From Leptolyngbyaceae cyanobacterium (GTDB lineage: Bacteria > Cyanobacteriota > Cyanobacteriia > Phormidesmidales > Phormidesmidaceae), in contig CBDHHL010000056.1 in the NCBI GenBank assembly GCA_965263355.1, positions 2,467,867 to 2,531,866 of the forward strand: DNA of 64,000 nucleotides, given 5' to 3'. The position numbers and the translations under genes were made by a program. Positions within the stretch are counted from its first letter, which is position 1. The number at the start of each line of letters is the position of its first letter. Below are positions 19,768-57,072 of this stretch, in pieces. The notes below the pieces were generated by a model. The model saw only the letters and a list, made by a program, of their open reading frames with translations. It did no database searches and had not been told where the DNA came from.

Positions 19768-19955
19768 TGTCCATTGCTAAACTATACCCACTAGTATGAC
19801 CATATGCATTTTTGATTAACAGTATGTAGCTTTAGGGCAACGTACGTCTATTCAATAACTGATGCTACAGGGCTGCTTAGAATTTATAGTTCCAAAATCC
19901 TACAGTGAACGTTTGATAATTAGAAATGTCTAGCATTAGCATTTGGCATAGCACC

Positions 19956-22900
19956 ATGCTTTTATCCAGGCTCAGCTCACAGATATGCACGATACTTTTA
20001 GTGCCTATAGGGCTTCTTCCCCTGTCAGCCCAAGCACAAATTATTCCAGATCAAACGCTGGGCTCAGAAACCTCTAATATAGTTAACGACCAGCTAATTC
20101 GAGGAGATCGTGCCGACTTAATTGAAGACGGTGCTACCCGTGGCGACAATTTATTTCATAGCTTTAGTGAGTTCAATGTCAACTCTGGCCAGCGGGTGTA
20201 TTTTTTTAATCCGGTTGGCATTGAGTCTATTTTGAGTCGGGTAACGGGGGAGAATCCGTCGGCAATCAATGGCACGTTGGGGGTAGATGGCCCTGCCAGT
20301 TTGTTTTTGATCAACCCGAATGGTCTGGTATTTGGTGAGGCTGCCGTATTAGATGTGACGGGTTCTTTTTATGGCACAACTGCAGAGGCGGTTACCATCG
20401 GCAATGGGGTATTTAGTGCAGTGGACCCAGGCCAGAGTCAATTGTTAGCGGTGAGTCCTAGCATATCGTTTTGGAATTATTTGACAGATACGTCAGGGGA
20501 GGTAGTCAATCGAGGGGCCTTAGCCATTGGGGGCGACCTGATTTTGGCTGGGAATCGATTAGATTTGCAAGGTCAGGTAGCCGCTGCAGGTGACGTATCG
20601 TTGTTAGCAACTGATACAGTACAGATTCGCGATACGGCTGAAGTTCCTTTTATCGGCTTTGCCGGGGGCGATCTGTTGGTGCAGGGCAATCAGCAGGTTG
20701 ATATTGTGGCGCTGAGTCATCCGGAGAGTGGATTGTTCTCAAATGGCAATATGGTACTGCGCTCAGCCAGTCAGGTGGGTGGAGATGCCCATTATTTAAG
20801 CGGTGGAGACTTTCGGATAGAGCAGTTGGATGGAAGTAATGGGGAGTTATTTAGTCCCATTGATCCAATTATTCGAGCCCTGGGAGATGTGACGATTGGA
20901 GCATACATCGGTGGCTCACTACATATTATTGCGGGAGGCTCTGTCAGGATTGATGCAGTCATTATTAATGCAGTGGATCCAGGTAGCCTTAGCATTGATT
21001 TTTTACAAGAGAATATTGAGTTGTCAGATGGCACAGTTGTGTCTATTGATGGAGGAACTCAGCCGACATTAGATGTGAGAGCAGGCGTTTTACCAGAAAG
21101 CATAGGTAATCCTCCACTGGAAATGGTAACGGGCTTGAATCCCTTGACAGATAGTCTTTTTATGTTGGATTTAACCGATAGTCCATCTAATGCCAATATT
21201 GAGATTGGTGATGTTTTTATAGATGCCTCTGATGGTCTAGTTCTTCTAACCAATCAGTATTCTCCAAACACTTTGCTAAACGGCGATATCTTAATTGAAA
21301 CTAGGCAACTAGATTTTGGAGGAGTCGTTGCAGGTGATCTCTCAACCGTTGGTGGCCAGATCATTTTTGATTCTCGAAATAACATCAATGTTGTTGATAG
21401 TTTAATTGCAACATCTTCAGTGAATTTAGACGGTGGTGGCATTACTCTGTTAGCTGAAAATGATATTGCTCTGGAGAGTCCTCAAAATAAAATAACAGGG
21501 TTATTAAGTACTATCCCCCCTGATGTAACTAGCATGGGGGGTAGCATACGGATTAATGCACAAAATTTAGAACTGCGAGATGGTTCCGCCATCTCCACAG
21601 AGATATTTGGCAATGGCCCAGCAGGGAATGTCATTCTCAATATTGAAGGAGCCGCCAGTTTTGATGGGGTGAATTTAGTAACTGGGGCTATTGGAGGTAT
21701 TTCCAGTGTCATCAGGCCAGGTAGTTCAGGTCTTGGAGGCAAGATTGAATTAACCGCTAGCAATTTGGAAGTAACGAATGGGGCACAACTAAATGCATCA
21801 ACCTTTGGTGAAGGTAATGCAGGGAATGTGATTCTGAATATTAGTGAAACCGCACGCTTTGATGGGGTGGATGCAGTCACTGGCATATTCAGTGGTGCAG
21901 GAAGCAGTGTTTTGCTTGGCGGTGTCGGTCGTGGCGGTAATGTTGAAGTAAACGCTAGAAATTTGGAAGTGGCTAATGGTGCACAGCTGATTGCATCAAC
22001 CTTTAACGAGGGCGATGCTGGTAGTGTGCTCCTCAATATTGAAGAAACGGCACGCTTTAGTGGAGTGGATGCAGTAACTGGAGCTGTTAGTGGTGCAGGG
22101 AGCGGTGTAGAGGCTGACGGCATTGGTCGTGGCGGTAATGTTGAAGTAAACGCTAGAGATTTACAAGTAACTGGTGGGGCATTGTTGTTTACATCAACTG
22201 CTGGCGAGGGTGATTCAGGCAACGTGATTCTTAATATTGAAGAGACTGCTCGTTTTGAGGGGGTGTCTTCAGTTACTGGAGTAGGAGGCGGAGTAAGAAG
22301 TAGTGTAGAGCCTAGTGGTATCGGTCGTGGAGGTAATATTGAAGTAACCGCTGGCAATTTGGATGTAACCAATGGAGCACAGTTGCTTGCATCAACCTTT
22401 GGTCAGGGAAACGCGGGCAATGTTGTACTTGATATTGAAGAAACAGCAAACTTTGATGGGATTAACCCTTTAACAGGTCTTAGCCCTACTGGTGTTGGGA
22501 GTAACATTGAGCTTGGCGGTATCGGACGTGGAGGCAATATTGAAGTAACCGCTGGCAATCTGAACGTAACCAATGGAGCACAGCTGCTTGCATCAACCTT
22601 TGGTCAGGGAAATGCGGGCAATGTTGTACTTGATATTAGAGAAACGGCTCGCTTTGATGGTGTAGATGCAGTAAACGGAATTGTGAGTGGTACAGGAAGT
22701 AGCGTTGAAGCTGAAGGGGTAGGTCGTGGCGGTGATATTGAATTAACTGCTAGAAATCTAGAAGTAAGCAATGGCGCACAACTCCTGGCATCGACTTTTG
22801 GAGAAGGCGATGCAGGTAATGTAATTCTGAATATTGAGGAGATTTCTCGTTTTGATGGGGTATCTCCAGTGACTGGTATTGGCAGTGGTGCAAGGAGTAG

Positions 22901-24923
22901 TGTTGAGATTGGAGGGGTAGGTCGTGGCGGTAATGTTGAAGTGACGACCAGGAATCTAGAAGTAAGCAATGGCGCACAGCTCCTGGCATCAACTTTTGGA
23001 GAAGGCGATGCAGGAATTGTGATGCTAGATATTGAAGAAACAGCACGCTTTGATGGGGTCAACCCTGCAACAGGGATTAATCCTACCAGTGCTGCCAGTA
23101 GTGTTGAACAGGGAGGGGTAGGTCGTGGCGGTAATGTTGAATTAGCCGCTAGAAATCTAGAAGTAACCAACGGAGCACAGATCTCTGCATCAACCTTGGG
23201 TGAGGGAGATGCAGGTAATGTAATTCTTGATATTGAAGAAACAGCTCGCTTTGATGGGGTCAACCCTGTAACAGGGATTAATCCTGCTGGTGCTGCAAGC
23301 ACTGTTGAACAGGGAGGGGTAGGTCGTGGCGGTAATGTTAAAGTGACGGCTAGAAATCTAGAAGTAACCAACGGAGCACAGCTCAGTTCAGAAACATCTG
23401 GAGAGGGTGATGCGGGCAATGTGATTCTTGAGATTGAAGAAACGGCTCATTTTGATGGAGTAAATCCGATAACAGGATTTTCTCCTAGTGCTGCAAGAAG
23501 CAGTGTTGCATCTGGAAGTGTAGGTCATGGCGGTAATATTGAAGTGGCGGCCAGGAATCTGAATGTAACCAATGGGGCTCTATTGCTAGCATCAACATTT
23601 GGAGAGGGTGATGCGGGTAATGTGATTCTTGAGATTGAAAGGATGGCCCGCGTTGATGGAGTGAATCTTATTACAGGCCTTAATGTTAGTACGGTGGGCA
23701 GTAGTGTTGAGACCGATGGGGTAGGGCGTGGCGGCGATGTTGAGCTAACAGCCAGGAATCTGGAGGTGACCAATGGGGCAATGCTGAGTGCAGCAACCTT
23801 TGGGGAGGGAGATGCAGGAAATATTATTCTTGATATTGAAGAAACAGCTCGCTTTGATGGAGTGAGTCCGATCACAGGTTCTAATTCTAGTGCTGTGGGC
23901 AGTAGTGTTGAGATAGGTGGAATAGGACGTGGCGGCAATGTTGAACTAACAGCCAGAAATCTGGAAGTGACCAATGGGGCACTGCTGACTGCGGCAACCT
24001 TTGGAGAGGGGGATGCAGGAAATATTATTCTTGATGTTGAAGAAACAGCTCGCTTTGATGGCATGAATCCGATCACAGGGGCTGTGAGTCCAACTTCTGC
24101 AACCAGCCTAGTTTTCCTAGGTGCTACAGGAAATGGTGGTGATATTGAAGTAACGGCTACTAATCTTGAACTTACTAATGGGGGAATATTAGCAACATCG
24201 AGTTTTGGTGAGGGGGATGCGGGCGATATAGTGTTGATTATTCGCGATCGCATTCAACTCCAAGATGGCATTATTGCAACTAATGCAGAGTTTAATGCTG
24301 GTGGACAAATTCAAATTGAAGCAGGCAACATTTTTCTGTTTGGTGATGGCGACATCCAAACCTTTGTTAACTCTGGTGCCAATAATGGTGGCAACATTAC
24401 CATCAACGCCAATGCCCTTGTTGCCTTCGACGATAGTGATATTCTCGCCTTTGCGGCTGACGGTCGCGGCGGCGATGTAGATCTCAGTCAAACTGCCTTC
24501 TTTGGCCAAGACTTTTCCTTTGCTCCCCCTGGCACTGACCCCCGTACCCTAGAAGGCAATGACCGGGTCGATATTAACGCTACAGGTCGCCTAGCCTCCG
24601 GAACAATCACCCTGGCCGATGTTAGTTTTATCCAAGACAGCTTGACCGAACTACCCGACAATCTGGTCAATCCTGAAGCACTGGTCGCCAATAGTTGTAT
24701 TGCTCGTAGGCGTGATACGGATAGCAATTTGGTCATCACAGGCAGTGATGGTCTGCCTGTACAGCCCAATCGCCTGCAAGCGTCCTATGAGCTAGGTGAA
24801 ATTCGCTCGTTTACAGAACCTAGCTCGGCAGAGGCTCATAGCCCAATCACTGAACCACACAGTACCTATCGATTAGCGGATGGTCGGCTTGTACTAGGGC
24901 GTGAGTGTGAGCCTGACCATTAA
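19956..24923 (+). CDS. filamentous haemagglutinin N-terminal (TPS) domain protein, tandem paralog
   Basis: Same architecture as 15601-19767 with more repeats; the start MLLSRLSS matches the paralog. Confidence 0.9.
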   Translation: MLLSRLSSQICTILLVPIGLLPLSAQAQIIPDQTLGSETSNIVNDQLIRGDRADLIEDGATRGDNLFHSFSEFNVNSGQRVYFFNPVGIESILSRVTGENPSAINGTLGVDGPASLFLINPNGLVFGEAAVLDVTGSFYGTTAEAVTIGNGVFSAVDPGQSQLLAVSPSISFWNYLTDTSGEVVNRGALAIGGDLILAGNRLDLQGQVAAAGDVSLLATDTVQIRDTAEVPFIGFAGGDLLVQGNQQVDIVALSHPESGLFSNGNMVLRSASQVGGDAHYLSGGDFRIEQLDGSNGELFSPIDPIIRALGDVTIGAYIGGSLHIIAGGSVRIDAVIINAVDPGSLSIDFLQENIELSDGTVVSIDGGTQPTLDVRAGVLPESIGNPPLEMVTGLNPLTDSLFMLDLTDSPSNANIEIGDVFIDASDGLVLLTNQYSPNTLLNGDILIETRQLDFGGVVAGDLSTVGGQIIFDSRNNINVVDSLIATSSVNLDGGGITLLAENDIALESPQNKITGLLSTIPPDVTSMGGSIRINAQNLELRDGSAISTEIFGNGPAGNVILNIEGAASFDGVNLVTGAIGGISSVIRPGSSGLGGKIELTASNLEVTNGAQLNASTFGEGNAGNVILNISETARFDGVDAVTGIFSGAGSSVLLGGVGRGGNVEVNARNLEVANGAQLIASTFNEGDAGSVLLNIEETARFSGVDAVTGAVSGAGSGVEADGIGRGGNVEVNARDLQVTGGALLFTSTAGEGDSGNVILNIEETARFEGVSSVTGVGGGVRSSVEPSGIGRGGNIEVTAGNLDVTNGAQLLASTFGQGNAGNVVLDIEETANFDGINPLTGLSPTGVGSNIELGGIGRGGNIEVTAGNLNVTNGAQLLASTFGQGNAGNVVLDIRETARFDGVDAVNGIVSGTGSSVEAEGVGRGGDIELTARNLEVSNGAQLLASTFGEGDAGNVILNIEEISRFDGVSPVTGIGSGARSSVEIGGVGRGGNVEVTTRNLEVSNGAQLLASTFGEGDAGIVMLDIEETARFDGVNPATGINPTSAASSVEQGGVGRGGNVELAARNLEVTNGAQISASTLGEGDAGNVILDIEETARFDGVNPVTGINPAGAASTVEQGGVGRGGNVKVTARNLEVTNGAQLSSETSGEGDAGNVILEIEETAHFDGVNPITGFSPSAARSSVASGSVGHGGNIEVAARNLNVTNGALLLASTFGEGDAGNVILEIERMARVDGVNLITGLNVSTVGSSVETDGVGRGGDVELTARNLEVTNGAMLSAATFGEGDAGNIILDIEETARFDGVSPITGSNSSAVGSSVEIGGIGRGGNVELTARNLEVTNGALLTAATFGEGDAGNIILDVEETARFDGMNPITGAVSPTSATSLVFLGATGNGGDIEVTATNLELTNGGILATSSFGEGDAGDIVLIIRDRIQLQDGIIATNAEFNAGGQIQIEAGNIFLFGDGDIQTFVNSGANNGGNITINANALVAFDDSDILAFAADGRGGDVDLSQTAFFGQDFSFAPPGTDPRTLEGNDRVDINATGRLASGTITLADVSFIQDSLTELPDNLVNPEALVANSCIARRRDTDSNLVITGSDGLPVQPNRLQASYELGEIRSFTEPSSAEAHSPITEPHSTYRLADGRLVLGRECEPDH

Positions 24924-42668: not shown

Positions 42669-43826
42669 CTACAGCCGCTCCCATGGATATGGCGTTCCAG
42701 ATCTAGCGCGCTGCCACAGAGGGCTCAAAATCCAAATTAAGATAAACGGCAGTAGGGCAAACCACAGCGTTTGATAGTTAAACAGGTCAAATAGGCCAAA
42801 GAGCTGTCGGGGAATCGGAGTGGTATTCCAGAATGCACCAACAGCTATGGCTAAGCCCATGGAACCTGTACTCAAGCCCATGGAAGACAGTTTTTTCAAC
42901 CCCGTGAGTCTTAAAAATTTGGGATAAAACCGCTCATAGAGAGTTTGCCAATCGGGAAACGCAGCATATAGGCTCAGCACCGATATAAAGGGAATGCCCA
43001 ACAGCAGCGTGTTAGCACTGTGAAAGATGGGGGTTATCCTTAAAATTATGGCTTGGGCCATACGGCTAAAAAGGGTTAGAACAAATACCCCTTCAAACAG
43101 TAAAACGCCATACTGGGTTGGAATCGCTAAGAGATCAGTGCGACCTAGCTGAGGACCAAGGGAATGGATCGGAAACCCATTTTTGAGATGACTCTCTACT
43201 CCTTTAGTGAGAACAAAATCACCCACAAAGTGAGGATTGGCTAGCCAATCTACCTGAATACACTTTGTTATGGTTGCCGATAAAAACAAGAGAGAGATAA
43301 TCACCAACAGCCCCCGAGCGGGCCAAATGTAACGCCAGGAAGACACTTTAGGATCAACAGTAGGCCTGCCTTGTTTTTGTCTCAGTAATGCATCGATTGA
43401 ATAGGTGGCCCCCCAGTTAGACAACAGCATAAACAAGGGGACATAAAATGTTGTGACTAGTATGGTGCGTTCTTGGGTAAGCAGTCCGGTACGGAAAATA
43501 GCTAACCCAAATCCCATAAGCAATGTGGTCAGGGTTGCTAGCCGAGTTTTGTACCCTATCAGTAACAAGACTAATGCCATTACCAAGAGAATTTCCATGG
43601 TGGGGTAGGCAATACTGGGCAGGGGTGATACGCCTCTAAATAGTATGGTTGGCTCCCACAGACTAGTTGGCACCATACTCAGTTCACTAAACTGCATATG
43701 ACTGAGAAACCACAGATAGAAAAGACTGTACACAATGCGATAAAGCCCCATGCGACCGGCAGCATTTTGGGCCGGTCTTGTCAGCCAATGAACATAGCAG
43801 TGCTCAACACGCTGAAAAAAGTTCAT
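42669..43826 (-). CDS. HTTM-like multi-TM membrane protein (copy A)
   Basis: GLYRI, LLIGYKTR, YSIDA; paralog of 55418-56578. Confidence 0.75.
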   Translation of the reverse strand: MNFFQRVEHCYVHWLTRPAQNAAGRMGLYRIVYSLFYLWFLSHMQFSELSMVPTSLWEPTILFRGVSPLPSIAYPTMEILLVMALVLLLIGYKTRLATLTTLLMGFGLAIFRTGLLTQERTILVTTFYVPLFMLLSNWGATYSIDALLRQKQGRPTVDPKVSSWRYIWPARGLLVIISLLFLSATITKCIQVDWLANPHFVGDFVLTKGVESHLKNGFPIHSLGPQLGRTDLLAIPTQYGVLLFEGVFVLTLFSRMAQAIILRITPIFHSANTLLLGIPFISVLSLYAAFPDWQTLYERFYPKFLRLTGLKKLSSMGLSTGSMGLAIAVGAFWNTTPIPRQLFGLFDLFNYQTLWFALLPFILIWILSPLWQRARSGTPYPWERL

Positions 43827-43832
43827 AGGCGG

Positions 43833-44318
43833 TTATTGCGAGAGCATGGAGTTAATGGCATCAGCGTTGAAACTGTCTACCAGAATGGTTTGCGTTGGCT
43901 GACCCATATCAATGGGGGGATCTTGGTCAAAGTCAACTTTCCAGACGTACTGCCAGGCGTCGATCTGTTTAATTTCAGTATCGAGGACAAAGTCAACTTG
44001 ACGGATCAGGTAGGGCTGGTAAATAGCTTTTTGCTCATCGGTACCGGTGATGGCGCGGTAAATCAGCTGGTGCCCAGCGGCCTGTCTGGATGAATCGTCA
44101 TCAATGGTGTAAAGGTCCATAGGACGTAGGATGTGTTGCTGACCATCACTGGCCTGGACATGCAGTTCAAGGCGACTGGTTTCGGTCGGTGGATCATAGT
44201 TACCGCTGGAGTACATTTCCCACCAGATAAACGGCCATACACCTCCTCCCAAGGCCATCAAGAGGAAAGAGATACCGAATGTGAAATATTTGGCTACCCG
44301 TAGATCCTGATCATCCAT
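43833..44318 (-). CDS. hypothetical partner protein (WPFxWWxMY motif), copy A
   Basis: Paralog of 56599-57072; 6 bp upstream of the HTTM-like gene. Confidence 0.75.
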   Translation of the reverse strand: MDDQDLRVAKYFTFGISFLLMALGGGVWPFIWWEMYSSGNYDPPTETSRLELHVQASDGQQHILRPMDLYTIDDDSSRQAAGHQLIYRAITGTDEQKAIYQPYLIRQVDFVLDTEIKQIDAWQYVWKVDFDQDPPIDMGQPTQTILVDSFNADAINSMLSQ

Positions 44319-46114: not shown

Positions 46115-47436
46115 CAGCCCAAGGAAAAAAGCATCCAATGGTTACCTGATAGCTATGTTGTTGCGGTGACGGGAATTTCAACGAACCATTTTTCTAATCC
46201 TGGCAGTCGTTGCCACTGTTTTTCCAGCTCATCCATAGCACTCGCCGACAAGCTAACCCCGGTCTCGTATATCTGAGTGATCAATTTCACCACCGGGTGA
46301 TTGCCCTTAAAAGTTAACGTGGCCGCAAAGTTCAGTACCGTCTCAACGCTGTCTAGCAGATCCCCATTCCAATGTTGTTCTAACCAACCAAAGGTGCGCT
46401 CAACGGGATTGTATTTACTGTGATAGGGGGGATAATAGGCTAACTGCAAGGGAATGTGTTCTCGATTCACCCACTGCACCAATCGAAACATAAATTGAGT
46501 GCGTCGTGACTGGTTTTCGGGACCGTTGTCGAGATTAATCACCCACTTTTGAATCTGGGGAAACTCAACTTTAATGTCGTTCCACCACTGTTCAAGTAGG
46601 TCAACGAGGCAGTCTGCGGTGACCTTGGAGGTCACAAAGAACAAAGATAAACGGTCGTATTGAGGCAAATAAATCCCCACAGGTGTCAGCGTCTGAGTGG
46701 GCTTAAAATCATGGTCTGCTGCCAGGGTGGGAACCCGATTTTTTTCCCCCTCGGTCATAGTCGCCGATATTAATGGTCGCCTTAGCATCGATGGAAATGC
46801 GCAAGGTCGATTCATCGGCATCCGCCTCCGCATTGACCCGACCCACTTGGTCAAAAATGGCGTCAGTTTCGGGAATTTTCTTTTGGGGTTTGGCTTTGAT
46901 CACTCGTCTTAAACAATAGTTCATCTCATTGAGCCGTTGACGAATCACTTCTGAGGTCGGTAACTCGTCGTCACGATACCCCGTTTGCTCGATCAATTGA
47001 CGACGTACCTCGGGAGCACTGATACGGGTATACAACCGCTCACTGCGTAAACTCGGATCTGCTTGGGTGAAGGGATCGACTATTGCACGAATATCGTCTT
47101 GTAACTTGGGCAACCTCGACTCCACTCGTTTACGTCCTCGACGGCCAAAGGCATCTTCAATCGGAGTCCCACTGGTTAACTCCTGCATCCCTTTACGAAT
47201 CGTGCCACGGTTCCATCCCAACGTCTGTTCGGCACGGGTTTGGCCTCCTATCCCCAACTCCTTGACCACCTTGGCCATAAACTGACGACGATGGGTGCCC
47301 TTTAGCTGGTTGGCGGTTTCTATAAATAGGGCTTTGAGAGAATCAGTTAATTCAAGAGACGTGGATGCCACAGAGCTGATTTAGAAATAGTCGACTGCTC
47401 TGACTATTATAGGATGATTTATTTATTTGGCAGCTC
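46112..47436 (-). mobile_element. ISAzo13-family insertion sequence
   Basis: Imperfect TIRs GAGCAGCCCAAGGAAAAAAGCATCC and (reverse complement) GAGCTGCCAAATAAATAAATCATCC; TA on both flanks; split transposase. Confidence 0.85.
46153..47371 (-). CDS. ISAzo13-family DDE transposase, two ORFs joined by a probable -1 frameshift
   Basis: PQKKIPETDAIF, ISIDAKA, DHDF, DNGPEN, YYPPYHSKYNPVER; GGGGGAAAAAAA slippery tract at 46739-46750. Confidence 0.88.
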
Positions 47437-47534: not shown

Positions 47535-49127
47535 TTATAATCGGCAAACCTCTAATCGAGTAAATAGGCTTGGCACCACTTTGACCCATCCCCCAGGTCG
47601 AGGTAAGTGTCCTAACGGAGCAGATAACCCAAAGGTCAAGTCATAGTAGGGTATCCAAATACCTTTTGATCGCCACCCAACAAGGTCTCCAAACCTTTTA
47701 TAGGCATTATCATCGTAATCATCATCAAACCTACCACCACATTCTAGATAAATTTGTTTCTGAATACTGAAACCAAATCTACCTTCACTATATTTCACCC
47801 ATAACTGGTCAAGCGTGCGGAGATCTACACAAGAAAATTGCTTAATCTCCTCTTCCCTAATCGAGTCACCTTCTCGCCGACCAACTTGCTTAAGTATGGT
47901 TATATATGTTTCATAATTAGCTGCTTTCCAGTTTTGAGATCTCAGTAGATCCCGTAACTGACTGTAGTCTAGCCCTCGATCAGAACTGAGATCATCATAA
48001 GAGGCTTTAACACTTGAAGATACTGAATTGGTGTGAATAGATAGATCAGAAATTACCTGTTCTTCGATTTCTGTAATGTCTTCTTCTCTCAACCCCAGAA
48101 GTTGCTGAAAATCCTTTAAATCAGATATCGTATCTGTATCCAAAGGATAACCAGAATCGTTTACAACTTCAATAAAAGTATTCTTATATTCTTCTAATCT
48201 ATTCTGCAACTCTCGGTGGGGTTTCAAGATTTCTTCTTCAATCTGTCCTGCTTCTGCTTCAGAAATCCCCAACCTTCCGCGAATAACGTGCAATCTTCGT
48301 CTGGCAACTGGCGATAGGTCGACCTTGTTCCTTTCCAAGGTTAAGTTCGTTACTTCTTTACGATATAGTAACTTTGGATTATCTTGTGGAGATCTTGCTA
48401 GAATAATTTTGTAGCCTTCCCTAGCAACATAGATTTCTGGCTGCATTGAGGGAACAACTTCTAGAACTCTTTGACGGGCGTATTGATACAACTCATCAGC
48501 TGTAATTAATCCATCCATATCCTGATCAGCTACCCCTGTTGCAATACCTTCAACCAAGAAACGGGTAAAGATTGAAAGATTAGATTCTTTTTGTTCAAAA
48601 GAGTATTCTACAGACGAGGAAGAAGTAAGGATAACTCTTCCACTACCACCTAACTGTGAAGCAACATCAATGCTATCGTTGCCTTTTACAGCTACAGTCG
48701 ACATGTCTCGAGCAAAAGCCCCACTGAAACTACAATCTAGGATAATAACTTGTCTTCTAGAGCGGCTAATGCTCATTACCTCTTGAATGAAATTAGCAGA
48801 AACAGCGGTAGATCTGACAAGCCTTTGATTACTCTTTCGAGTATTAGTGGTAGTCAGGTAAAGTCTGCGCATTTCATCTTTAACAGCGTGACCTGAGAAA
48901 TATAACAATACCAAGTCATCTTTATGAGAAGCAGAAAATAAAATTTCTATCTCTTGCTCCATCTGCTGCCTACTTGGGTCAAGCAATACAGATACTTGAT
49001 CAAAACCTCCTAACTCCGGATCCCTTAAAACGCGAGACATTGCTTCAGTGTCTGCCCTTGCAGCAGGAAGTGGAGAAAAATCTGATTCATACTCACTTAC
49101 TCCAATTAACAGTGCGGCTTTATTCAT
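47535..49127 (-). CDS. caspase-like (C14) peptidase domain + helical linker + GUN4-like domain
   Basis: KAALLIGVSEY, LLYFSGH, IILDCSFSG; GUN4-like DYSQLRDLL..WKAANYET..DLRTLDQLWVKYSEGRFGFSIQK..APLGHLP. Confidence 0.9.
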   Translation of the reverse strand: MNKAALLIGVSEYESDFSPLPAARADTEAMSRVLRDPELGGFDQVSVLLDPSRQQMEQEIEILFSASHKDDLVLLYFSGHAVKDEMRRLYLTTTNTRKSNQRLVRSTAVSANFIQEVMSISRSRRQVIILDCSFSGAFARDMSTVAVKGNDSIDVASQLGGSGRVILTSSSSVEYSFEQKESNLSIFTRFLVEGIATGVADQDMDGLITADELYQYARQRVLEVVPSMQPEIYVAREGYKIILARSPQDNPKLLYRKEVTNLTLERNKVDLSPVARRRLHVIRGRLGISEAEAGQIEEEILKPHRELQNRLEEYKNTFIEVVNDSGYPLDTDTISDLKDFQQLLGLREEDITEIEEQVISDLSIHTNSVSSSVKASYDDLSSDRGLDYSQLRDLLRSQNWKAANYETYITILKQVGRREGDSIREEEIKQFSCVDLRTLDQLWVKYSEGRFGFSIQKQIYLECGGRFDDDYDDNAYKRFGDLVGWRSKGIWIPYYDLTFGLSAPLGHLPRPGGWVKVVPSLFTRLEVCRL

Positions 49128-51033
49128 GGTCTATTTCATGCGTAACGAATGCTAGTAAACTATGAATCTCATCGTTATCTGACTCTATATCTAATGCTTT
49201 TCTAAGTTGCTCTTTGGCTAGCTTAAACTCTTTTTGTAATCTTAAGTCTCGACCATATCCCAAAAGTGCTTGAACATAATTTTCCTCGGTTTTTAATGGA
49301 TCAATCTGAAAAGCCCTTGTATAGAGTGCTGAGGCTCTACCAAAATCCTCAACCTCTAAGTACGCTGCTGCCATATCAAATAGAGCACTAAAATGATTGG
49401 AATTTAAATCTAGTACCTGGTTATATAAATCAATTACAATTGTTATGTCACCTTTTCGATGCAAATTAGTCGCTCTTTGATAGATACGCTCAGCTTTTGG
49501 ATCTAGTTTCTCCAGTTCCCTTATTTCCTGGTAAAGTGGGTATCGATTGACTAACCAATGACGGACAAGTTCAATTTTGACTTTATACGTCGAAGCTTTG
49601 TAATCCTTTACAGAGTCTAGAAAATTCCATTCAACAAGACGTTTTTCAGCATCAACTAATGGTTTAGTCAAAACAACTCCATACTCCTTTAATAACTCTC
49701 CTGGAAGAGCTAATTTAGACTCTACATTGGGTAATCCAAGTGTTAGAATCTGTCCAATATGAATTTGCTGTAATTCTGTACTGACTACAATTGCTCCTAA
49801 TCTTGGATCATAAGAGGCGATCCAGCTTACCGAAGGCAACTTACGCATGAGATAGCTATATATCCAGACTGGGGCAGGACCAGTAATAACTATTCCAGTA
49901 TTCGTATTAATTTCTTCAGGCAGCTCTAATTTAGAGAGAACTTTCGGCTCAATACGTCTGTCCTCAGAGAGGATCTCTATGGTCAACCATTGATAAGTTA
50001 AGCCTTTGTAATCCTGTGGTTCACTCAGCTTTAAACGAACTGAGACATTAGATGTTTGACTAATATTACTTTGAATATCTAAAGCATTGAATTCTTTATT
50101 AGCGTTTTTTTGCGCTTCTGCCACAGCAGAAAAGATAACTCTTTCAGGAATTGGCAATCCGTCTCGAAACCATGCTAATCCTGCTTCACCAATCTCAATT
50201 GCCCTATCTATAATTTTCCTTACATCTCCACGAATGATTCTCCAATTTTGTCGATCTCGTGCATACCCAAACAGTGCAAAGCATATTAATTGCGTAAAGT
50301 AAGGATGTCTCGCTGAGAGATCAAGAATTTCTTGTATAGCTGCTGAATCATATTTCAGGATCCCTTCAGCAGGTTCAACAATTAACTGCTTAGCACTTGT
50401 TTCATCAAGTAAACCAATCTCTCGACTAGGTGCTTCTTTAAATAAACTAAGTAACTTGGGCATATCATCCAGCCGTCGCCCGACTACTGGAATGAGAATT
50501 AATTGCTTTTGTCGATAAATAATTGACTGTAAATAGGGGAAGAAATTTTCAACTGCTACGTCTGACTTATCACTATTTAAGACATCAAACTCATCCATTA
50601 AGAAGACCAAGTGTCTGCCTGATAATACTCTATAAATCTTAGGCAGAAAAACACTATGAAAAATACTTGAGTCTGTCTTCAATTCCTCTACAGAAGGTGA
50701 TGTTACGTCTTTTAATTGCAATTCAAGTTGATCGACAATCTCCACAGCAATATAGTGCAAAATATCACTAAGATGTGCTTGGCTTCTATCCTGAAGATCA
50801 AGCAAGACAAAAGCAAATTCATCTAATCCAACACAAGCTGGAATTTGAGAGAGTACTGAGGACTTGCCAATGCGCCGTTGGCCATGTAGCAAAATAACCT
50901 TCGCGCCTGACTTCAAATTGTCCTCAACAAATTGAAATAGACGTTCTCGCCCGAAGAAAAGCTCTGGCTTATCGATTGGGCTACCAATGTCGTAAGGATT
51001 TCTTCGAGATTGTGAAGACAACATGAGCATCAA
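49120..51033 (-). CDS. STAND-like AAA+ ATPase with an inserted Csx3/Crn3-like domain and C-terminal TPRs
   Basis: NPY..FFGRE, GQRRIGKS, FLMDEFD, RHPYFTQ; Csx3-like GIVITGPAPVWIYSYL..WIASYDPRLGAIVVST (about 49735-50040); TPR-like helices. Confidence 0.85.
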   Translation of the reverse strand: MMLMLSSQSRRNPYDIGSPIDKPELFFGRERLFQFVEDNLKSGAKVILLHGQRRIGKSSVLSQIPACVGLDEFAFVLLDLQDRSQAHLSDILHYIAVEIVDQLELQLKDVTSPSVEELKTDSSIFHSVFLPKIYRVLSGRHLVFLMDEFDVLNSDKSDVAVENFFPYLQSIIYRQKQLILIPVVGRRLDDMPKLLSLFKEAPSREIGLLDETSAKQLIVEPAEGILKYDSAAIQEILDLSARHPYFTQLICFALFGYARDRQNWRIIRGDVRKIIDRAIEIGEAGLAWFRDGLPIPERVIFSAVAEAQKNANKEFNALDIQSNISQTSNVSVRLKLSEPQDYKGLTYQWLTIEILSEDRRIEPKVLSKLELPEEINTNTGIVITGPAPVWIYSYLMRKLPSVSWIASYDPRLGAIVVSTELQQIHIGQILTLGLPNVESKLALPGELLKEYGVVLTKPLVDAEKRLVEWNFLDSVKDYKASTYKVKIELVRHWLVNRYPLYQEIRELEKLDPKAERIYQRATNLHRKGDITIVIDLYNQVLDLNSNHFSALFDMAAAYLEVEDFGRASALYTRAFQIDPLKTEENYVQALLGYGRDLRLQKEFKLAKEQLRKALDIESDNDEIHSLLAFVTHEIDHE

Positions 51034-51099
51034 CCCTTAGCCATGAACTTGAGGAGTAAGACTATACATAAAGCACGCATTGAAATAATAAACAAAAAT

Positions 51100-52401
51100 C
51101 TAGCCTGATACAAACCCTTTCGGAACAGCACTAACTAGCTTACTAGTCCATTCAATGATAGATGGTACTTCATCTTTGTGCTGCCATAAATAACGTATCC
51201 CACCCCTAATCTGCTCTGCTTGCTTAGTGCTCATCAAATTAAGAAAAACCTTTTGACGTTGTTGAAGCTCTTCCTCATTACTATTTTCAATTTCTTTAAT
51301 AACCCACCATTCCATCAACGATGAGGCAAATGTGTAGTTATGTCTACCCTCCTGGGAAATTCGGATGATGACTCCTCGTTGTTCTAAATCCGTCAGTTCA
51401 CGCTCCCGTTGACTAAGGATGATGCTGATATCACCCAAATCATAAATTTTCCCCTTTATTCGACCCTTCAAATTAGATAAAGCAATTAACATCAAAAGCA
51501 TTTGTTCTTCTTGGTTTGACATTTCCCACATCTGTTGAAAAAATTGCTCAACCGAACTTAGGAAGTCTCGTGCAAATGCTTCGGGATCGGGTATTTCTCC
51601 AGTCTGAAGTTTGTCATATAAAAGATACCCTGCATGTTGAATTAATGCAGGATGTCCATCAGTCATTTCTCTAATCCCATCTCGTAGTTCTGCTGTCATA
51701 GGCATGCAGCCTAGCAGTACATCAATTTCGCTATCAGTAAATGGCTTTAAAGGTTGGAATAAATAGTGGTTATACCATGGAGACTTATCTGGAGAAAGCT
51801 TTGGACCAAGCTCGTTAAGACGCCGAAATGAAGTGACAATAATTGAAAGACAGCCTTTACTCTGAACCGCTAAGTTGCGAGTTTCGCTTAGGAAAATTTC
51901 TATGCTGCTTTCTTCATATTGGTCATGTGAACGGAAAGCAGCATCATAGTTATCTAGCAATAGCACTAAAAACTTCTTCTGTTTTCCTACCCGCTTCAAG
52001 AGCTGGCGTAACTCATCCTTGGTTACTTCAGCCTTTTCTAGAGATTGATCGATCCAGGCTTGTAATGCACTACTACCGTCAGCAACCTCATCCTTGATCA
52101 GGATTAGAATTTCCCTCCAAAAGGCAGCTGGCAGGAAAGGATATATGCTCAAGCAATCTAGATATACAACAATAGACTCAGAACGTTGGCATCCATAATG
52201 TTGCCAAATTTGAGGAGAAAGCAACAACTCCAAAAAAGATGATTTCCCCATTCCCGAACCACCCCATATTGCCAGACAGCTACGACTAGCGATTCGATCA
52301 AACGCAACACCAAGTTCAGATTTCCATCCAACGAAGCTTTCTGGTGAAACTAGCTTTCCAGGAGAAAAAGGATTTTTTGTCATGGCTTTTTTTGGGTCCA
52401 A
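51100..52401 (-). CDS. STAND-like AAA ATPase (partner)
   Basis: NPF..FVGW, GGSGMGKS, LLLDNYD, GHPALIQ. Confidence 0.85.
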   Translation of the reverse strand: MDPKKAMTKNPFSPGKLVSPESFVGWKSELGVAFDRIASRSCLAIWGGSGMGKSSFLELLLSPQIWQHYGCQRSESIVVYLDCLSIYPFLPAAFWREILILIKDEVADGSSALQAWIDQSLEKAEVTKDELRQLLKRVGKQKKFLVLLLDNYDAAFRSHDQYEESSIEIFLSETRNLAVQSKGCLSIIVTSFRRLNELGPKLSPDKSPWYNHYLFQPLKPFTDSEIDVLLGCMPMTAELRDGIREMTDGHPALIQHAGYLLYDKLQTGEIPDPEAFARDFLSSVEQFFQQMWEMSNQEEQMLLMLIALSNLKGRIKGKIYDLGDISIILSQRERELTDLEQRGVIIRISQEGRHNYTFASSLMEWWVIKEIENSNEEELQQRQKVFLNLMSTKQAEQIRGGIRYLWQHKDEVPSIIEWTSKLVSAVPKGFVSG

Positions 52402-52492: not shown

Positions 52493-52579
52493 GCCCAACG
52501 ACTAAGCTCACCGGACACAGATCCTCTTGGCCACTCGACCGATTACCTTTCACCGTTCCGGTGCGGCGACTTGTTAGCC
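52493..52579 (-). other. attC recombination site 3 (87 bp)
   Basis: Minus strand GGCTAAC-aagtc-gccgcaccggaac...gtccggtgagc-ttagtc-GTTGGGC; similar to site 2; begins 13 nt after a stop codon. Confidence 0.85.
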
Positions 52580-52592
52580 CTCAGCAAAAGCC

Positions 52593-52766
52593 TTATCTTT
52601 CAATTCGTTCAAGTTCCTCACGAACTACTTTCCGCAACGTTTCCTCAAGCGGTTGTCGAGTGGCCTGAACGTGTTAGCGTAAAGCTTCGTGAATTAAGGT
52701 TTGGTAGTTTCCACCACCTGCACTATGCACTTGTTCACGAAACCATGCCAGAACATCATCATCTAG
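52593..52766 (-). pseudogene. BrnA-type antitoxin remnant (5'-truncated, internal stop)
   Basis: Manual translation LDDDVLAWFREQVHSAGGGNYQTLIHEALR*HVQATRQPLEETLRKVVREELERIER*; TAA at 52674-52676. Confidence 0.75.
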
Positions 52767-53012
52767 CCAGTTTGTGGCTCGATTGATGACGATCACCACC
52801 TCCCTCAAGGCTCAGAGTAGGAATATTCTTGATTTCCTGACCCAGACTTACTCGGCTGCGCGTACCGGAAAAGAACCGCCTTCTTTGATCCTACAAAACC
52901 AACGGTAGGGACAGTTACGTTTTTATTTAAGCAATATCCTGAAAATCTAAGCCTTACTGATGAAAATGAGAGAGTCTTTATCAAAGCTTTTCTTGATTGA
53001 TTATTATTATGA

Positions 53013-53460
53013 TCATGGTCCCCAAACCGATACGACATTATCGTCTTGTGTCACATCTCGTTTAGATCCTTTAACATACCAGTTATGATAGCCTCGTCTT
53101 TCAGGATCGTTATTTGTAATTGTTCCTATATTTAGTCCATATACGACATATCCCCAGCCTCCAATCTCTGCTGTTCCCAACCTAACTGCTGAATTACTGA
53201 TTGAGTAATCTAAGTTCGTAACTAAAACAGCAACAGCTTTGATTTTATGCTTCTTAGCTTTGTCAAATACATCCGTTCCATACTTCACAACTAAGCTGCC
53301 CCTGCGCGAATCTGCTTCCTCACGTTTTCTATGTGCTTCTTCAAAAGCTAACGCTGTATTGGCAATACCAGTGGCAGCACTGATCATTGCAGCTGTGGCA
53401 CTTTGCGCACCTGCGGCAGCACTTATCAAGCCTGCTATGGCTGCTATTTGAAGGGGCATG
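53013..53460 (-). CDS. hypothetical protein in the first cassette; weak resemblance to Bacillus YvgO-type proteins
   Basis: Ala-rich N-terminus, then GTITNND..GYHNW..G; approximate start at MPLQ (ORF track start 53567). Confidence 0.55.
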
Positions 53461-53623: not shown

Positions 53624-54391
53624 GTCGGGTAAGGAAGCAGGTTTTAAATATATCCCGCTTCCTCCCCTCAGAACCGTACGTACAACTTTCACTGTATACG
53701 GCTCAAGCAATGTCTTGAAATTCAGTTTTTCCGATTCTTAACAACCTTTTCAGATTGTCCTGATGGTTACGTTTACAAGCCGAAGCTTGCACCTAACTTT
53801 TCCCAATCAGTTAAGTTTCATCTCACCTTCATTCAAGTCCATCACCTATCCCACGTCAGCCCCCTTTCAGGTTGGGCAAATGCCCTATCTGCCCCGTTAT
53901 GAATTCCGGTTGCCTTTCGGCTGGCAGCTTTCGCTTCTTGGGATATCCTGTGCCCGCTAGAGAGTTCAGCTTTGGTTGCCCTCCGCTTACCTGGAAAATA
54001 AAGTATTTTCAGGACTCTATCGGGGTTTCCTCGTTCCGCACGGGGTGGAGATATGATTGCTTTAGGATTCCTCTTTACTCCGAGAGCGGGATGTTCTTGA
54101 TTGGCATTTAGACGCTACCAACCCCCATATGCTCCAATATTCTCGTATCAGCCATTTCGAGAACTCACATTAACGAAGCCTCATCAAGGATTCACTTGCG
54201 TTATCCTTAGCAATCTTGCCCTAGCCTGCACCCTCTTGTTGGCTCAGAAGATACTGCGACATTTAACCTCGTCTGCTGATGCTGCCCTCCCATTACTGGT
54301 CGAACATTCCGAGGCGGACATCCGCCTGAACACTGGCGGGGAGAGTCATTTGGGAGTCTCTCCAACTCCCCCGAACGACTTCGAGTCGCGC
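53624..54391 (-). mobile_element. ORF-less group II intron (IIB-like ribozyme, 768 nt)
   Basis: 5' end GCGCGAC (GUGYG variant); 34-nt domain V GAGCCGTATACAGTGAAAGTTGTACGTACGGTTC; domain VI ending CCCGAC; candidate EBS1/EBS2 pair with the upstream exon; no RT ORF. Confidence 0.88.
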
Positions 54392-54410
54392 GCATAACTA
54401 TGAGTTATCC
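54392..54410 (-). other. attI-like simple site
   Basis: Minus strand GGATAAC-TCATA-GTTATGC (L box, 5-bp spacer, R box) at the head of the attC array, in the same orientation. Confidence 0.65.
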
Positions 54411-54540
54411 AGACTAAGTCTGGATAACTACCTTCCAGCCGGAGTTATCCAGAAACTTTCTGGATAAACACCTTATAAGCAATTAACCCAGAAACTTTCT
54501 GGATAATACCCCCAGAGTCGGAGTTATCCAGAAAGCTTTA
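54403..54540. repeat. four palindromes of about 27 bp (AGTTATCCAGA-N5-TCTGGATAA) at about 40-bp period
   Basis: Copies start at 54403, 54443, 54482 and 54522; the last is a half site. Confidence 0.85.
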
Positions 54541-54749
54541 ACCTCGCTTTAATAGTTCAAATAAACTATTGAGCCATCTACCAAGACTTATCGTGAGTGT
54601 GATGTTTTAGGGGGTCGCTAAGACTATCCTTGTTCGATGGGGTCAATATCTACCGTTTTTGACGGTTAAACCAGTGAAATGAGCATTTTTCCGGCCAGAA
54701 GCATCTCCTCAGTGCCTTGATAACAGCGTGATACAGCCCATTTGCTAGC

Positions 54750-54863
54750 TTGACGAAAGCCTAACCCCCGGTCTAAAGTAACCCAATGCTGCAAGTGCAG
54801 CTGTTCTACTAGAACCTAATAACTTGGCACCATCGGCAGGTGCTCGCAACACCTAACCGATGG
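54750..54863 (+). promoter_or_regulatory. putative sigma70 promoter followed by a leader hairpin
   Basis: TTGACG-N18-TAAAGT; CCATCGG..CCGATGG stem at 54830-54863. Confidence 0.4.
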
Positions 54864-54995
54864 CTGACCCGCGGATTACCGTGCAATCCTTGGGATGGGC
54901 TTATTATGCCTCAGCCCCTGCGATTTGCCATGCATCGCGGGGGCTGAGCCGTTAGGTTCTGGCTTTCCTTGTTGTTTCTCTGGAGAACCAGAACC

Positions 54996-55235
54996 ATGTT
55001 TCAAGACCCAACCCAGGGCGCATCAGCGCTCACCCGTCGCCCTGACCCGCTACCAGAATCTTCCTACGAAATGGGACGACATCTGCTGCTGGGCAGTTTG
55101 ACCTTTGTGCAGACCACCATCAAACTACTGCATAAGCTCAACTACACTGAGCCCAACGACTGGAGCCGTCCGCTACCCACCGGACGCCCCAATGAGGTGA
55201 TGGCGATTTTGACTAAAAAAGTGAAGATTAGCTAG
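54996..55235 (+). CDS. small cyanobacterial hypothetical protein
   Basis: RHLLLGS..VQTTIKLLHKLNY.EPNDWS.P.PTGRPNEVMAIL, a pattern recalled from a multicopy cyanobacterial family. Confidence 0.7.
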   Translation: MFQDPTQGASALTRRPDPLPESSYEMGRHLLLGSLTFVQTTIKLLHKLNYTEPNDWSRPLPTGRPNEVMAILTKKVKIS

Positions 55236-55417
55236 GGCGATGCGATCGCATCCTTATCTAAAGGTGCGATCGCAGCCTTATTTAACGGACTAATCCTATG
55301 CTCTATCAAGACTAAAGTTGCGGGTAAACAACATGGTCTGAAACATGATTCTCGTCAGTACTTTATACTTTTCTTTACCCCCATTAGCCTGCCCTCAGAT
55401 AGAAAGTATTTCAGAGG

Positions 55418-56578
55418 TTAGAGGCGTTCCTGGTTGGATAAAGACTGATGGTGCTGCCTACGTTGCCAAAGTGGACTGACAATCCACAGAACTATAAACG
55501 GCAGGAGTGCAAACCATAGGGTTTGATAGCTAAGTACGCCAAAGAGGCCAAAGAGTTGACGCGGGATGGCTGTGGTATTCCAAAGCAGGCCAATGAGTAC
55601 TGCCAAACCGACGGAGCCAGTCACTAACAGTGAGGGAGATAGTTTGTCTAAGCCCTTTACTCGTAATAGCTTGGGATAAAACCGTTCATAGAGCATTTGC
55701 CAATCTGGAAAGGCAGCATAGATGCTTAAAACTGTTGTAAATGGAATGCCCAACAGTAGTGTATTGAAGCTGTGAAAAATAGGAGCTAAGCGCAAGATGA
55801 TGGCCTGGGCAACCCGATTAAAGAGAACCAAAATAAACGCTGTTTCAAACAGTAGTACCGCATATTGGGCTGGAATGGCTAAGGCAGCGGTGCGACCCAG
55901 CTGAGGCCCCAGGGGATAAATGGGAAACCCATTACTGAGATGACTTTTAACCCCTTTTGCCAGGATAAAATCCCCCACCAATTGCGGTTCAACCAGCCAG
56001 GAGACTTCCAAAAATTTGACGATGGCGGCTGATAAAAACAAGATTGCTAAGATCACCAACAGTCCCCGTGCTGGCCAGATATAACGCCAGGAAGACTCTC
56101 GGGGAGATGGAACTAGCTGTCCTTGCTTTTGTTTGAGTACAGCATCGATGGAATAGGTCGCCCCCCATTTAGAAAACAACATAAATAAGGGAACATAGAA
56201 CACAATCAGTACGATGGTTCGCTCTTGAATTAAAAAGCCAGTGCGAAACCCAGCTAACCCAAACCCGACAATTAAAACAACCAGATTGGCCAGACGGGTT
56301 TTATAGCCCAGCAATAGCAAGATCAATGCCATCACCAAAAGCATTTCTAGGGTTGCATAGCCAACATCTGGCAGTGGCGATAACACTTTTAGCAAAATGG
56401 TAGGTTTCCATTGGTTAGTGGGCACCAGGCCAAGTTCCGCAAATCTGAGAGGACTGAGAAACCATAGATAGAAGACGCTATATATGATGCGATAGAGACC
56501 CATGCGGCCAGCTGCATTTTTCGCAGGGCGTGTGAGCCATTGACCATAGCGACGCTCAAGCTGCTGGAAAAATTTCAT
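55418..56578 (-). CDS. HTTM-like multi-TM membrane protein (copy B)
   Basis: Paralog of 42669-43826. Confidence 0.75.
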   Translation of the reverse strand: MKFFQQLERRYGQWLTRPAKNAAGRMGLYRIIYSVFYLWFLSPLRFAELGLVPTNQWKPTILLKVLSPLPDVGYATLEMLLVMALILLLLGYKTRLANLVVLIVGFGLAGFRTGFLIQERTIVLIVFYVPLFMLFSKWGATYSIDAVLKQKQGQLVPSPRESSWRYIWPARGLLVILAILFLSAAIVKFLEVSWLVEPQLVGDFILAKGVKSHLSNGFPIYPLGPQLGRTAALAIPAQYAVLLFETAFILVLFNRVAQAIILRLAPIFHSFNTLLLGIPFTTVLSIYAAFPDWQMLYERFYPKLLRVKGLDKLSPSLLVTGSVGLAVLIGLLWNTTAIPRQLFGLFGVLSYQTLWFALLPFIVLWIVSPLWQRRQHHQSLSNQERL

Positions 56579-56598
56579 AGGGGCTATCTAGACAACAC

Positions 56599-57072
56599 TT
56601 AGTTTGTAGTATGAGCAGTAAAGCGATCAATAAAAACGCTTTGGGTTGGCTGTTGAATATCTAGCGGCGGGTGTTGCTCAAAGTCAACATGCCAAACGTG
56701 ACGCCAGGCCTCCACCTGCTCGATTTTGGTGTCGAGCAGAAATTCCAGTTGTTGAATCAAGTAAGGGCGAGAAATTGCTTGCTGTTCTGCATTGCCTTCT
56801 ACGGCGGCTTGCATCAGTCTATGCCCTGGTGTTTGGTTAGAGGTATCGTTATCTAGGGTGTAGAGGTCCATCGGACGTAATACATGCTGATGGCCAGCAC
56901 TATCTAAAACATGGAGTTCGAGACGACTTACTTTAGTCGGTGGCGTGTAACCATCGCTGGTGGAGTACATGTCCCACCAGGTAAATGGCCATAGGCTACC
57001 ACCCAGCACTAACAGCACAAAGGCCATGCCTGCAGTGAAATATTTAGCGAACCGCAACTCCTGAGTTTCCAT
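56599..57072 (-). CDS. hypothetical partner protein, copy B
   Basis: Paralog of 43833-44318 (LRPMDLYT shared). Confidence 0.75.
   Translation of the reverse strand: METQELRFAKYFTAGMAFVLLVLGGSLWPFTWWDMYSTSDGYTPPTKVSRLELHVLDSAGHQHVLRPMDLYTLDNDTSNQTPGHRLMQAAVEGNAEQQAISRPYLIQQLEFLLDTKIEQVEAWRHVWHVDFEQHPPLDIQQPTQSVFIDRFTAHTTN

Follow-up and report, generated by a model that had tools for sequence, protein, structure and literature searches.

A group II intron lies directly behind the heptamer GTTATGC in a 64,000-nt stretch of DNA from a Leptolyngbyaceae cyanobacterium (contig CBDHHL010000056.1; hereafter, the window). The locus raises the question of whether the intron belongs to a lineage that targets integrons, which integron site is read, and what becomes of the intron when the integron captures a further cassette. 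An earlier note, made from the sequence alone, had proposed a IIB-type lineage that homes to attI and is carried down the array by each newly integrated cassette. We conclude, with a probability of roughly three in four, that the window intron is a non-autonomous member of a cyanobacterial IIB clade that homes to attI and is displaced by cassette capture. It is near certain that the intron family targets the integron core, and likely that attI is the primary target of the clade. Positions are those of the window, and the features of the intron, of the site before it, and of the cassettes behind it lie on the minus strand unless stated.

The intron (53624-54391), delimited by an Rfam match and an alignment of copies, is 768 nt long, has six domains, and contains no reverse transcriptase (RT) open reading frame (ORF). 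Its 5' end, GCGCG, starts at 54391, six nt past the G/TT crossover as the earlier note had placed it, and its 3' end, AC, is at 53624. The Rfam model Intron_gpII matched at 53706-53624 with 66.4 bits, covering domains V and VI. Domain V (53671-53704) has the 34 nt and the AGC triad given in the earlier note, and domain VI (53624-53668) has a bulged A seven bases before the 3' end. Seventeen complete ORF-less copies were aligned and folded to a consensus; the 16 others are 82-86% identical to the window intron, and compensatory changes were found at 59 pairs of the fold. Exon-binding site 1 (EBS1), GUCUAA (54113-54108), lies in the loop of the ID3 hairpin (54099-54123) with an unpaired probability of 0.83-1.0, and the hairpin stem is backed by compensatory pairs in the same 17 copies. 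In the consensus fold, the EBS2 segment stays unpaired; the stem-loop described in the earlier note thus exists, and neither exon-binding segment is buried in a stem. The alpha-prime loop (54146-54153) is the complement of alpha at 54281-54274, and both are kept in the alignment. In the shortened domain IV, a remnant at 53765-53792 aligns with the first codons of the intron-encoded protein (IEP) of the ORF-bearing relatives L077, L095, and L251. The element therefore has the domains V and VI, catalytic triad, bulged A, and six-domain fold of a group II intron. EBS1, EBS2, EBS2a, and the 34-nt domain V with AGC are those of the IIB class with a chloroplast-like (CL) RT, and the IEPs of the relatives have a CL-type RT with an En domain, as expected of a IIB lineage. 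Group IIC is not a fit, given AGC instead of CGC, the presence of EBS2, and the CL-type IEP of the relatives. Two kinds of insertion resembling miniature repeats were also observed: identical 49-50-nt hairpins in the alpha-prime loop of the otherwise distinct copies L073 and L275, and an identical 24-nt hairpin in the domain III region of L073 and L270.

Relatives were gathered with queries that contained intron sequence only. A pattern search recovered 10 loci from genome contigs (five of them outgroups), 52 from metagenome contigs, and three from viral contigs. DNA searches with the intron gave matches in 7 of 401 genomes of the phylum and, at the level of the order and with fragments counted, in 30 of 172. 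The three viral matches were rejected as family members, as they failed the 5'-end alignment and their exons were not integron cores; the phage collection gave no match. From 94 distinct 5' rows, five were removed (two without exon, one false 5' end, one tandem copy, and one internal duplication). The remaining 89 cannot be taken as independent, being of common descent and in part from shared habitats. The majority of the complete copies lack an ORF, and truncated copies are numerous.

The homologs proved to be inserted at integron cores. TT occupies positions -6/-5 in 87 of the 89 family junctions, on the top strand behind an R/R' heptamer, and intI or an intI fragment, pointing away, lies within 600 bp at 10. 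The strict core GTTRRRY, to which the earlier note had referred the site, is present at only 42 sites and is not matched by GTTATGC itself (T at position 5); the looser GTT-R-D-N-Y holds at 78 of 89 junctions against a per-position background of 0.33% in the window. The sites were classified by eye, partly on the spacer itself, as 43 attI-like, 35 behind attC, and 11 neither; the family is thus not found solely at attI. A 40-bp periodicity score separated the attI sites poorly. All 28 distinct 3' exons differ from one another, and the 3' exon is under little constraint.

The upstream site of the window intron is itself attI-type. The R box, GTTATGC (54392-54398), contains intron-binding site 1 (IBS1, 54397-54392), and the crossover presumably falls between 54398 and 54397. 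It is preceded by a 5-bp spacer (54403-54399) and an L box (54410-54404), an interval (54399-54410) that contains IBS2 (54404-54400) and IBS2a (54405). An L box and an R box separated by 5 bp, with a GTT crossover, form an attI core, and here they close a platform of palindromic repeats with a period of ~40 bp (54399-54573), whose array ends GGATAAC, 5 bp, GTTATGC. The platform has no adjoining intI, and tblastn gave no intI match in the 64-kb window. The assignment to attI comes from homology. In 21 genomes of a close-relative genus (congeners, picked by a housekeeping protein at 91-96% identity), an integron integrase scored above the cut-off in 11 and the repeat array was matched in 17. The window platform is 85-86% identical to sites that lie 228-229 bp from an intact divergent intI (L175 and L166). 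Across 23 attI copies, the window's included, the majority base reaches 0.97 at GTTA and 0.39 past the R-box heptamer, after which the homologous sites part ways; the agreement upstream is partly built into the search pattern. Among the 20 copies with at least 900 bp upstream, three have intI, ten have a small hypothetical gene, shared with the window, and no intI, and seven have neither. An adjacent divergent intI is found at 3 of 20 homologous sites and is missing at the window site, and variable DNA past the core with a cassette array downstream is present. Many other cyanobacterial intI genes likewise have a repeat platform of this kind ahead of the core.

An attC site of 87 bp (52493-52579) follows ~1.1 kb past the intron. 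Its bottom strand brings AAC and GTT together in a long hairpin with RNA parameters; with DNA parameters, this hairpin was not returned as the minimum-energy fold. The upstream palindromes could instead be an unrelated repeat or operator that matches an integron core by chance, as the want of intI in 64 kb and of a clear attC directly behind the first gene would allow. With the array ~230 bp from an intact intI in congeners, different DNA after each of the 23 copies, and the attC 1.1 kb downstream, we consider such a coincidence hardly credible.

The small hypothetical gene belongs to a multi-copy module (54748-55235, plus strand; ATG at 54996, 79 aa). In complete integrons of congeners, this module sits downstream of intI, and for this reason the window locus can simply be read as one that has lost its intI. 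Over 470 bp (54748-55216), the module has a structured-looking leader in front of the 79-aa gene, and most congeners carry several copies of it at 67-91% identity. It matched no Rfam or Pfam family, and Rfam gave no support for a C4-like RNA within it. Congeners carry many intI-less attI copies (L133-L162, L220-L246; compare window 54399-55274), with up to 10 matches per genome including palindromic double hits, different DNA after each, and often the same small hypothetical gene before. We read these dispersed copies as an integron served in trans. The attI regions upstream of cyanobacterial intI (L103-L132) showed two to six repeats of ~40-bp period, and high-GC picocyanobacterial-type intI loci had no repeat arrays.

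How the intron reads such a site was examined through its exon-binding segments. EBS1 pairs with TTATGC at five of six positions as claimed, by four Watson-Crick pairs and one G-U. EBS1 variation follows the target: copies with GGCUAA face C at -2 in 6 of 6 cases, and copies with GUCUAA face a purine in 18 of 24. The pairing of EBS1 is as good at attC as at attI, and the window alone contains 114 EBS1-perfect hexamers. For the second contact, the earlier note had paired UGUGAGUU (54169-54162) with AACTCATA (54406-54399). The two are complementary at 8 of 8 positions and the loop is the right one, but the register is one base off. A register scan was best at -9 (3.29 of 5) against 1.62 at -8, and the eight-pair duplex was dropped as an EBS2 rule for the family, although it may still form here. 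The published IIB rule pairs EBS2 with -9 to -13 and EBS2a with -14 (PMC8643678), and two outgroup introns, L007 and L010, fit this register exactly. In the window (54166-54172), EBS2, AUGUG (54170-54166), makes four of five pairs with -9 to -13, and U54172, as EBS2a, pairs with A-14.

EBS2 and its targets vary together. Cognate pairs scored 4.27 against 3.64 for shuffled partners, and the cognate value was reached in 0 of 20,000 shuffles. EBS2 plus EBS2a form, of six possible Watson-Crick pairs, 4.17 at attI (n=24), 1.2 at attC (n=5), and 3.5 at other sites (n=4). Because the by-eye classes had used the spacer itself, the test was repeated after sorting the sites solely by intI adjacency (10) and by hairpin folding (22, including one site attI-like by eye). 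Pairs to the pooled EBS2 set numbered 3.4 for the first class and 1.5 for the second, with a p value of 5e-5, which overstates the case since the rows share descent and, in part, habitats. EBS2 thus fits attI spacers and not attC, as expected if the introns enter at attI and are later pushed down by cassettes.

The six bases after the crossover G are part of the first cassette of an integron. IBS1 and the intron should therefore travel with the cassette, and IBS2 should stay in attI. This split predicts the pattern seen at attC, where the EBS1 fit is kept and the EBS2 fit is lost. A cassette that bears an intron remnant was found in different places. The unit consists of a 43-nt intron stub and a gene labeled MlaE-type by resemblance, and its copies in three congener genomes (L306, L307, and L308) share 96-98% identity. 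The shared sequence begins at the crossover, 5-7 bases ahead of the stub, and reaches attC in two of the genomes, where R'' of attC complements the head of the unit. Three unrelated sequences precede the unit, and two of the copies lie downstream of an empty attI: in L307 at the first attC after it, and in L308 at the third or a later attC of a complete integron. In L306, the unit stands behind a degenerate site. Judged from these sequences, the stub-bearing cassette has demonstrably changed position. A stub of the same 43-nt length precedes an unrelated cassette in L305 (G444), a TetR-like/short-chain dehydrogenase cluster by resemblance, and the length shared with L306-L308 suggests a preferred truncation point in domain IA.

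Other loci bear on displacement as well. Empty attI-like sites were seen upstream of attC-borne introns at 3 of the 34 loci examined, most of which were too short to tell, and two introns lie about one cassette apart in L079 and in L087. In L077, two introns stand in a head-to-tail tandem; an occupied site can be hit again, and an empty target is therefore not strictly needed. Displacement by new cassettes, as first proposed, is thus supported by the EBS2 fit and the stub cassette, and its demand for an empty target falls. Alternatively, the clade may read the core heptamer only, through EBS1 together with contacts to the protein or with folding of the single strand, and may enter attI and attC directly, displacement being minor. 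This would suit the 35 of 89 junctions behind attC with their equal EBS1 pairing, the nearly free 3' exon, and a published IIB1 intron right behind attC for which a role of the upstream hairpin has been proposed (PMC7923331). It does not explain why EBS2 and EBS2a follow attI spacers and not attC, why no more than 11 of the 89 insertions miss both site classes when the window alone offers 114 perfect hexamers, or why the stub-bearing cassette changed position, and we regard direct entry by the heptamer as rather unlikely.

Homing would require a protein that the window intron does not encode. Four family members encode full RT-maturase-HNH proteins, for which the nearest solved relative is 6ME0 (the T.el4h RT, E 5e-126). 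The four form one clade with support of 100/100, and the sampled outgroups lie at non-integron sites. In a tree of 19 rows with only three labeled references, the pREB6 reference having been dropped by the ORF filter, this clade groups neither with the EcI5 pair nor with the N.sp.I4/A. variabilis IIB2 introns. Plasmids yielded only distant relatives, with a best IEP identity of 54.5%. ORF-less Thermosynechococcus introns are mobilized in trans (PMC8643678), and we infer the same for the ORF-less copies of this family. A few ancient insertions that were only carried along, as cassettes were shuffled, attI modules duplicated, and DNA transferred horizontally, with no ongoing homing, would agree with the mostly ORF-less and often truncated copies, the multi-copy attI modules of the genus, and the carriage of intron remnants by cassettes. 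Passive carriage would, however, keep the 3' exon, and the 28 of 28 different 3' exons therefore require many separate insertions. EBS1 and EBS2 that vary with their targets, intact En-plus IEP copies, and compensatory selection on structure also stand against passive spread, which we judge very improbable.

The reading of attI homing followed by displacement can be set out as a cycle. Comparison of the sequences shows that the clade enters the top strand, oriented like the cassettes, six nt past the G/TT crossover, with EBS1 reading the six bases after the G, and EBS2/EBS2a reading the attI spacer and L box. The window intron is predicted to splice and home. The intron RNA would be spliced and then reverse-spliced with the help of an En-plus RT that an ORF-bearing member of the clade provides in trans. 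The attI site would stay recombinogenic because insertion keeps the core heptamer intact, and the intron would become the head of cassette 1. IntI, acting in trans or before the local loss of intI, would then integrate a new cassette. The intron, its cassette, and IBS1 would shift down and come to lie behind attC, and attI with the six bases of the new cassette would form a fresh target. Whether this amounts to a self-renewing niche seems to us an even bet. IntI would rebuild the composite target at each capture, the site would never be damaged, the intron would be cassette cargo, and mostly ORF-less ribozymes would spread with two borrowed enzymes, RT in trans and IntI, over a network of integrase-less attI sites. 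If so, intact introns, and not only stubs, would travel in cassettes between arrays and cells, and introns would mark the order of past captures.

Several observations weigh against homing to attI with later displacement. The case of a moving cassette is a single one and involves a dead stub in place of an intact intron, and among the family loci no intact introns with the same 3' exon were found behind two different sites. The window holds neither an IEP gene nor intI. Only one of the 23 window-type attI copies contains the intron; the pattern missed a second, L288. One position of the window EBS1 is mismatched, L283 makes only one of six EBS2 pairs despite standing beside intI, and only five attC-borne copies have a readable EBS2. 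For EBS3-IBS3, with the EBS3 position inferred, 15 complete copies gave seven Watson-Crick pairs, one G-U, and seven mismatches, the window intron among the last. The 11 of 89 sites that fit neither class, the partly spacer-based classification, and the kinship that inflates the EBS2 p values belong here too.

Four of 22 sequencing runs were examined, all as contigs. In X2, one contig matches 53624-54045 exactly and then passes into a 3' exon unlike that of the window, and a second has GTTAGAC at its 5' junction; ten X1 contigs show GTTAG in the core. These contigs hint at repeated insertion before different cassettes, the pieces being unlinked and the runs possibly those of the source organism. 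In the RNA run X22, a contig of a relative joins the intron 3' end to the 5' end with one changed base. Intron circles with an extra base have been described (PMC4770220), and the join may be compatible with such a circle. The DNA run X4 contains an exact head-to-tail intron join, and a tandem copy could therefore also explain the X22 contig. No spliced-exon junction was found in the four contig-form runs, an absence that the lack of coverage makes uninformative.

The window element works like an integron-specialized group II intron, but it belongs to a IIB/CL clade at the attI crossover and not to the IIC-attC introns. IIC-attC introns (S.ma.I2 type) are likewise specialized on integron recombination sites within cassette arrays, but they enter the attC bottom strand at R'' (TTGT/T), run against cassette transcription, and have a CGC triad but no EBS2 (PMC7923331, PMC4424553). 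The present clade, of class IIB, has both AGC and EBS2; its insertions lie on the top strand after the R/R' heptamer, point the same way as the cassettes, do not disrupt the site, and are seemingly aimed at attI. More similar is UHB.I2, a IIB1/CL1 intron in cassette orientation directly behind attC in a soda-lake metagenome, for which no target rule was given (PMC7923331). It is a single En-minus case with UUGCG..GU ends and Shewanella/Legionella relatives, and attI was not implicated; the present clade is En-plus, GYGCG..AC, and cyanobacterial, and is set apart from it by description and not by sequence. CL1 and class E introns have also been noted in two Shewanella integrons (PMC9229058). 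The retrohoming introns EcI5 and T.el4h (IIB1/IIB2) share the EBS1/EBS2/EBS2a geometry, the En-plus chloroplast-like RT, and the occurrence of ORF-less beside ORF-bearing copies (PMC8643678). Their targets are fixed alleles, whereas those of the present clade consist of attI plus whichever cassette comes first, with 28 different 3' exons. The site itself recalls attI1 (L/R core, DR1/DR2; 10.1101/2022.02.06.479319) and the clusters of attC lacking integron integrases (CALIN) or In0 arrangements, with inverted boxes 5 bp apart, a GTT end, and a place at the head of a cassette array; it differs in its long palindromic platform with a ~40-bp period and in its many copies without adjoining intI.

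Reviews list three target strategies of bacterial group II introns: homing alleles, terminators, and attC bottom strands (PMC4424553). In their accessible parts, PMC4424553, PMC8876359, PMC8919778, and PMC12584367 name only IIC-attC introns for integrons, or none. No attI-homing family was seen among the introns of the accessible part of the PMC8643678 supplement. In the open-access literature (subscription papers and the intron database lay outside this scope), we found only single IIB/CL1 cases in integrons, without a target rule, and no description of an attI-homing intron clade.

The genes around the locus complete its description; by its gene content, the host is probably a filamentous cyanobacterium. 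The first gene past the intron (53013-53459, 148 aa) is presumed to be the cassette gene; it has no Pfam match and an Atlas lead of only 0.85, and all Atlas matches for the 79-aa and 148-aa proteins were under 0.9. Next lies a broken gene for a BrnA-type antitoxin (52595-52811) with an internal stop and no N-terminus (PF14384, E 5.8e-5, below the cut-off). A promoter scan gave three sites against 2.1 expected and provided no promoter evidence. Downstream of attC, 47535-52401 encodes a STAND-type ATPase (433 aa), an ATPase-Csx3-TPR protein (637 aa), and a caspase-GUN4 protein (530 aa), possibly a signaling or defence module. An ISAzo13-family transposase is split across two frames at 46153-47371. 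A pair consisting of a DoxD-like membrane protein and a ~160-aa protein occurs twice (42669-44318 and 55418-57072) and brackets the variable region. Farther away, at 15601-24923, two tandem large repeat proteins, filamentous-haemagglutinin-like by resemblance, have near-identical ends.

If this reading is true, the clade would represent a fourth group II target strategy, directed at a recombination site that another mobile system regenerates. The position of an intron is then predicted to record cassette history. The sequence of the intron family could flag attI sites, whose detection is otherwise difficult. The family is also large, ORF-less, and conserved in structure, although introns of this sort have been described as rare, and would be a natural ribozyme that targets by the 5' exon only. 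Intron and integron would form a little-described partnership of two kinds of mobile DNA.
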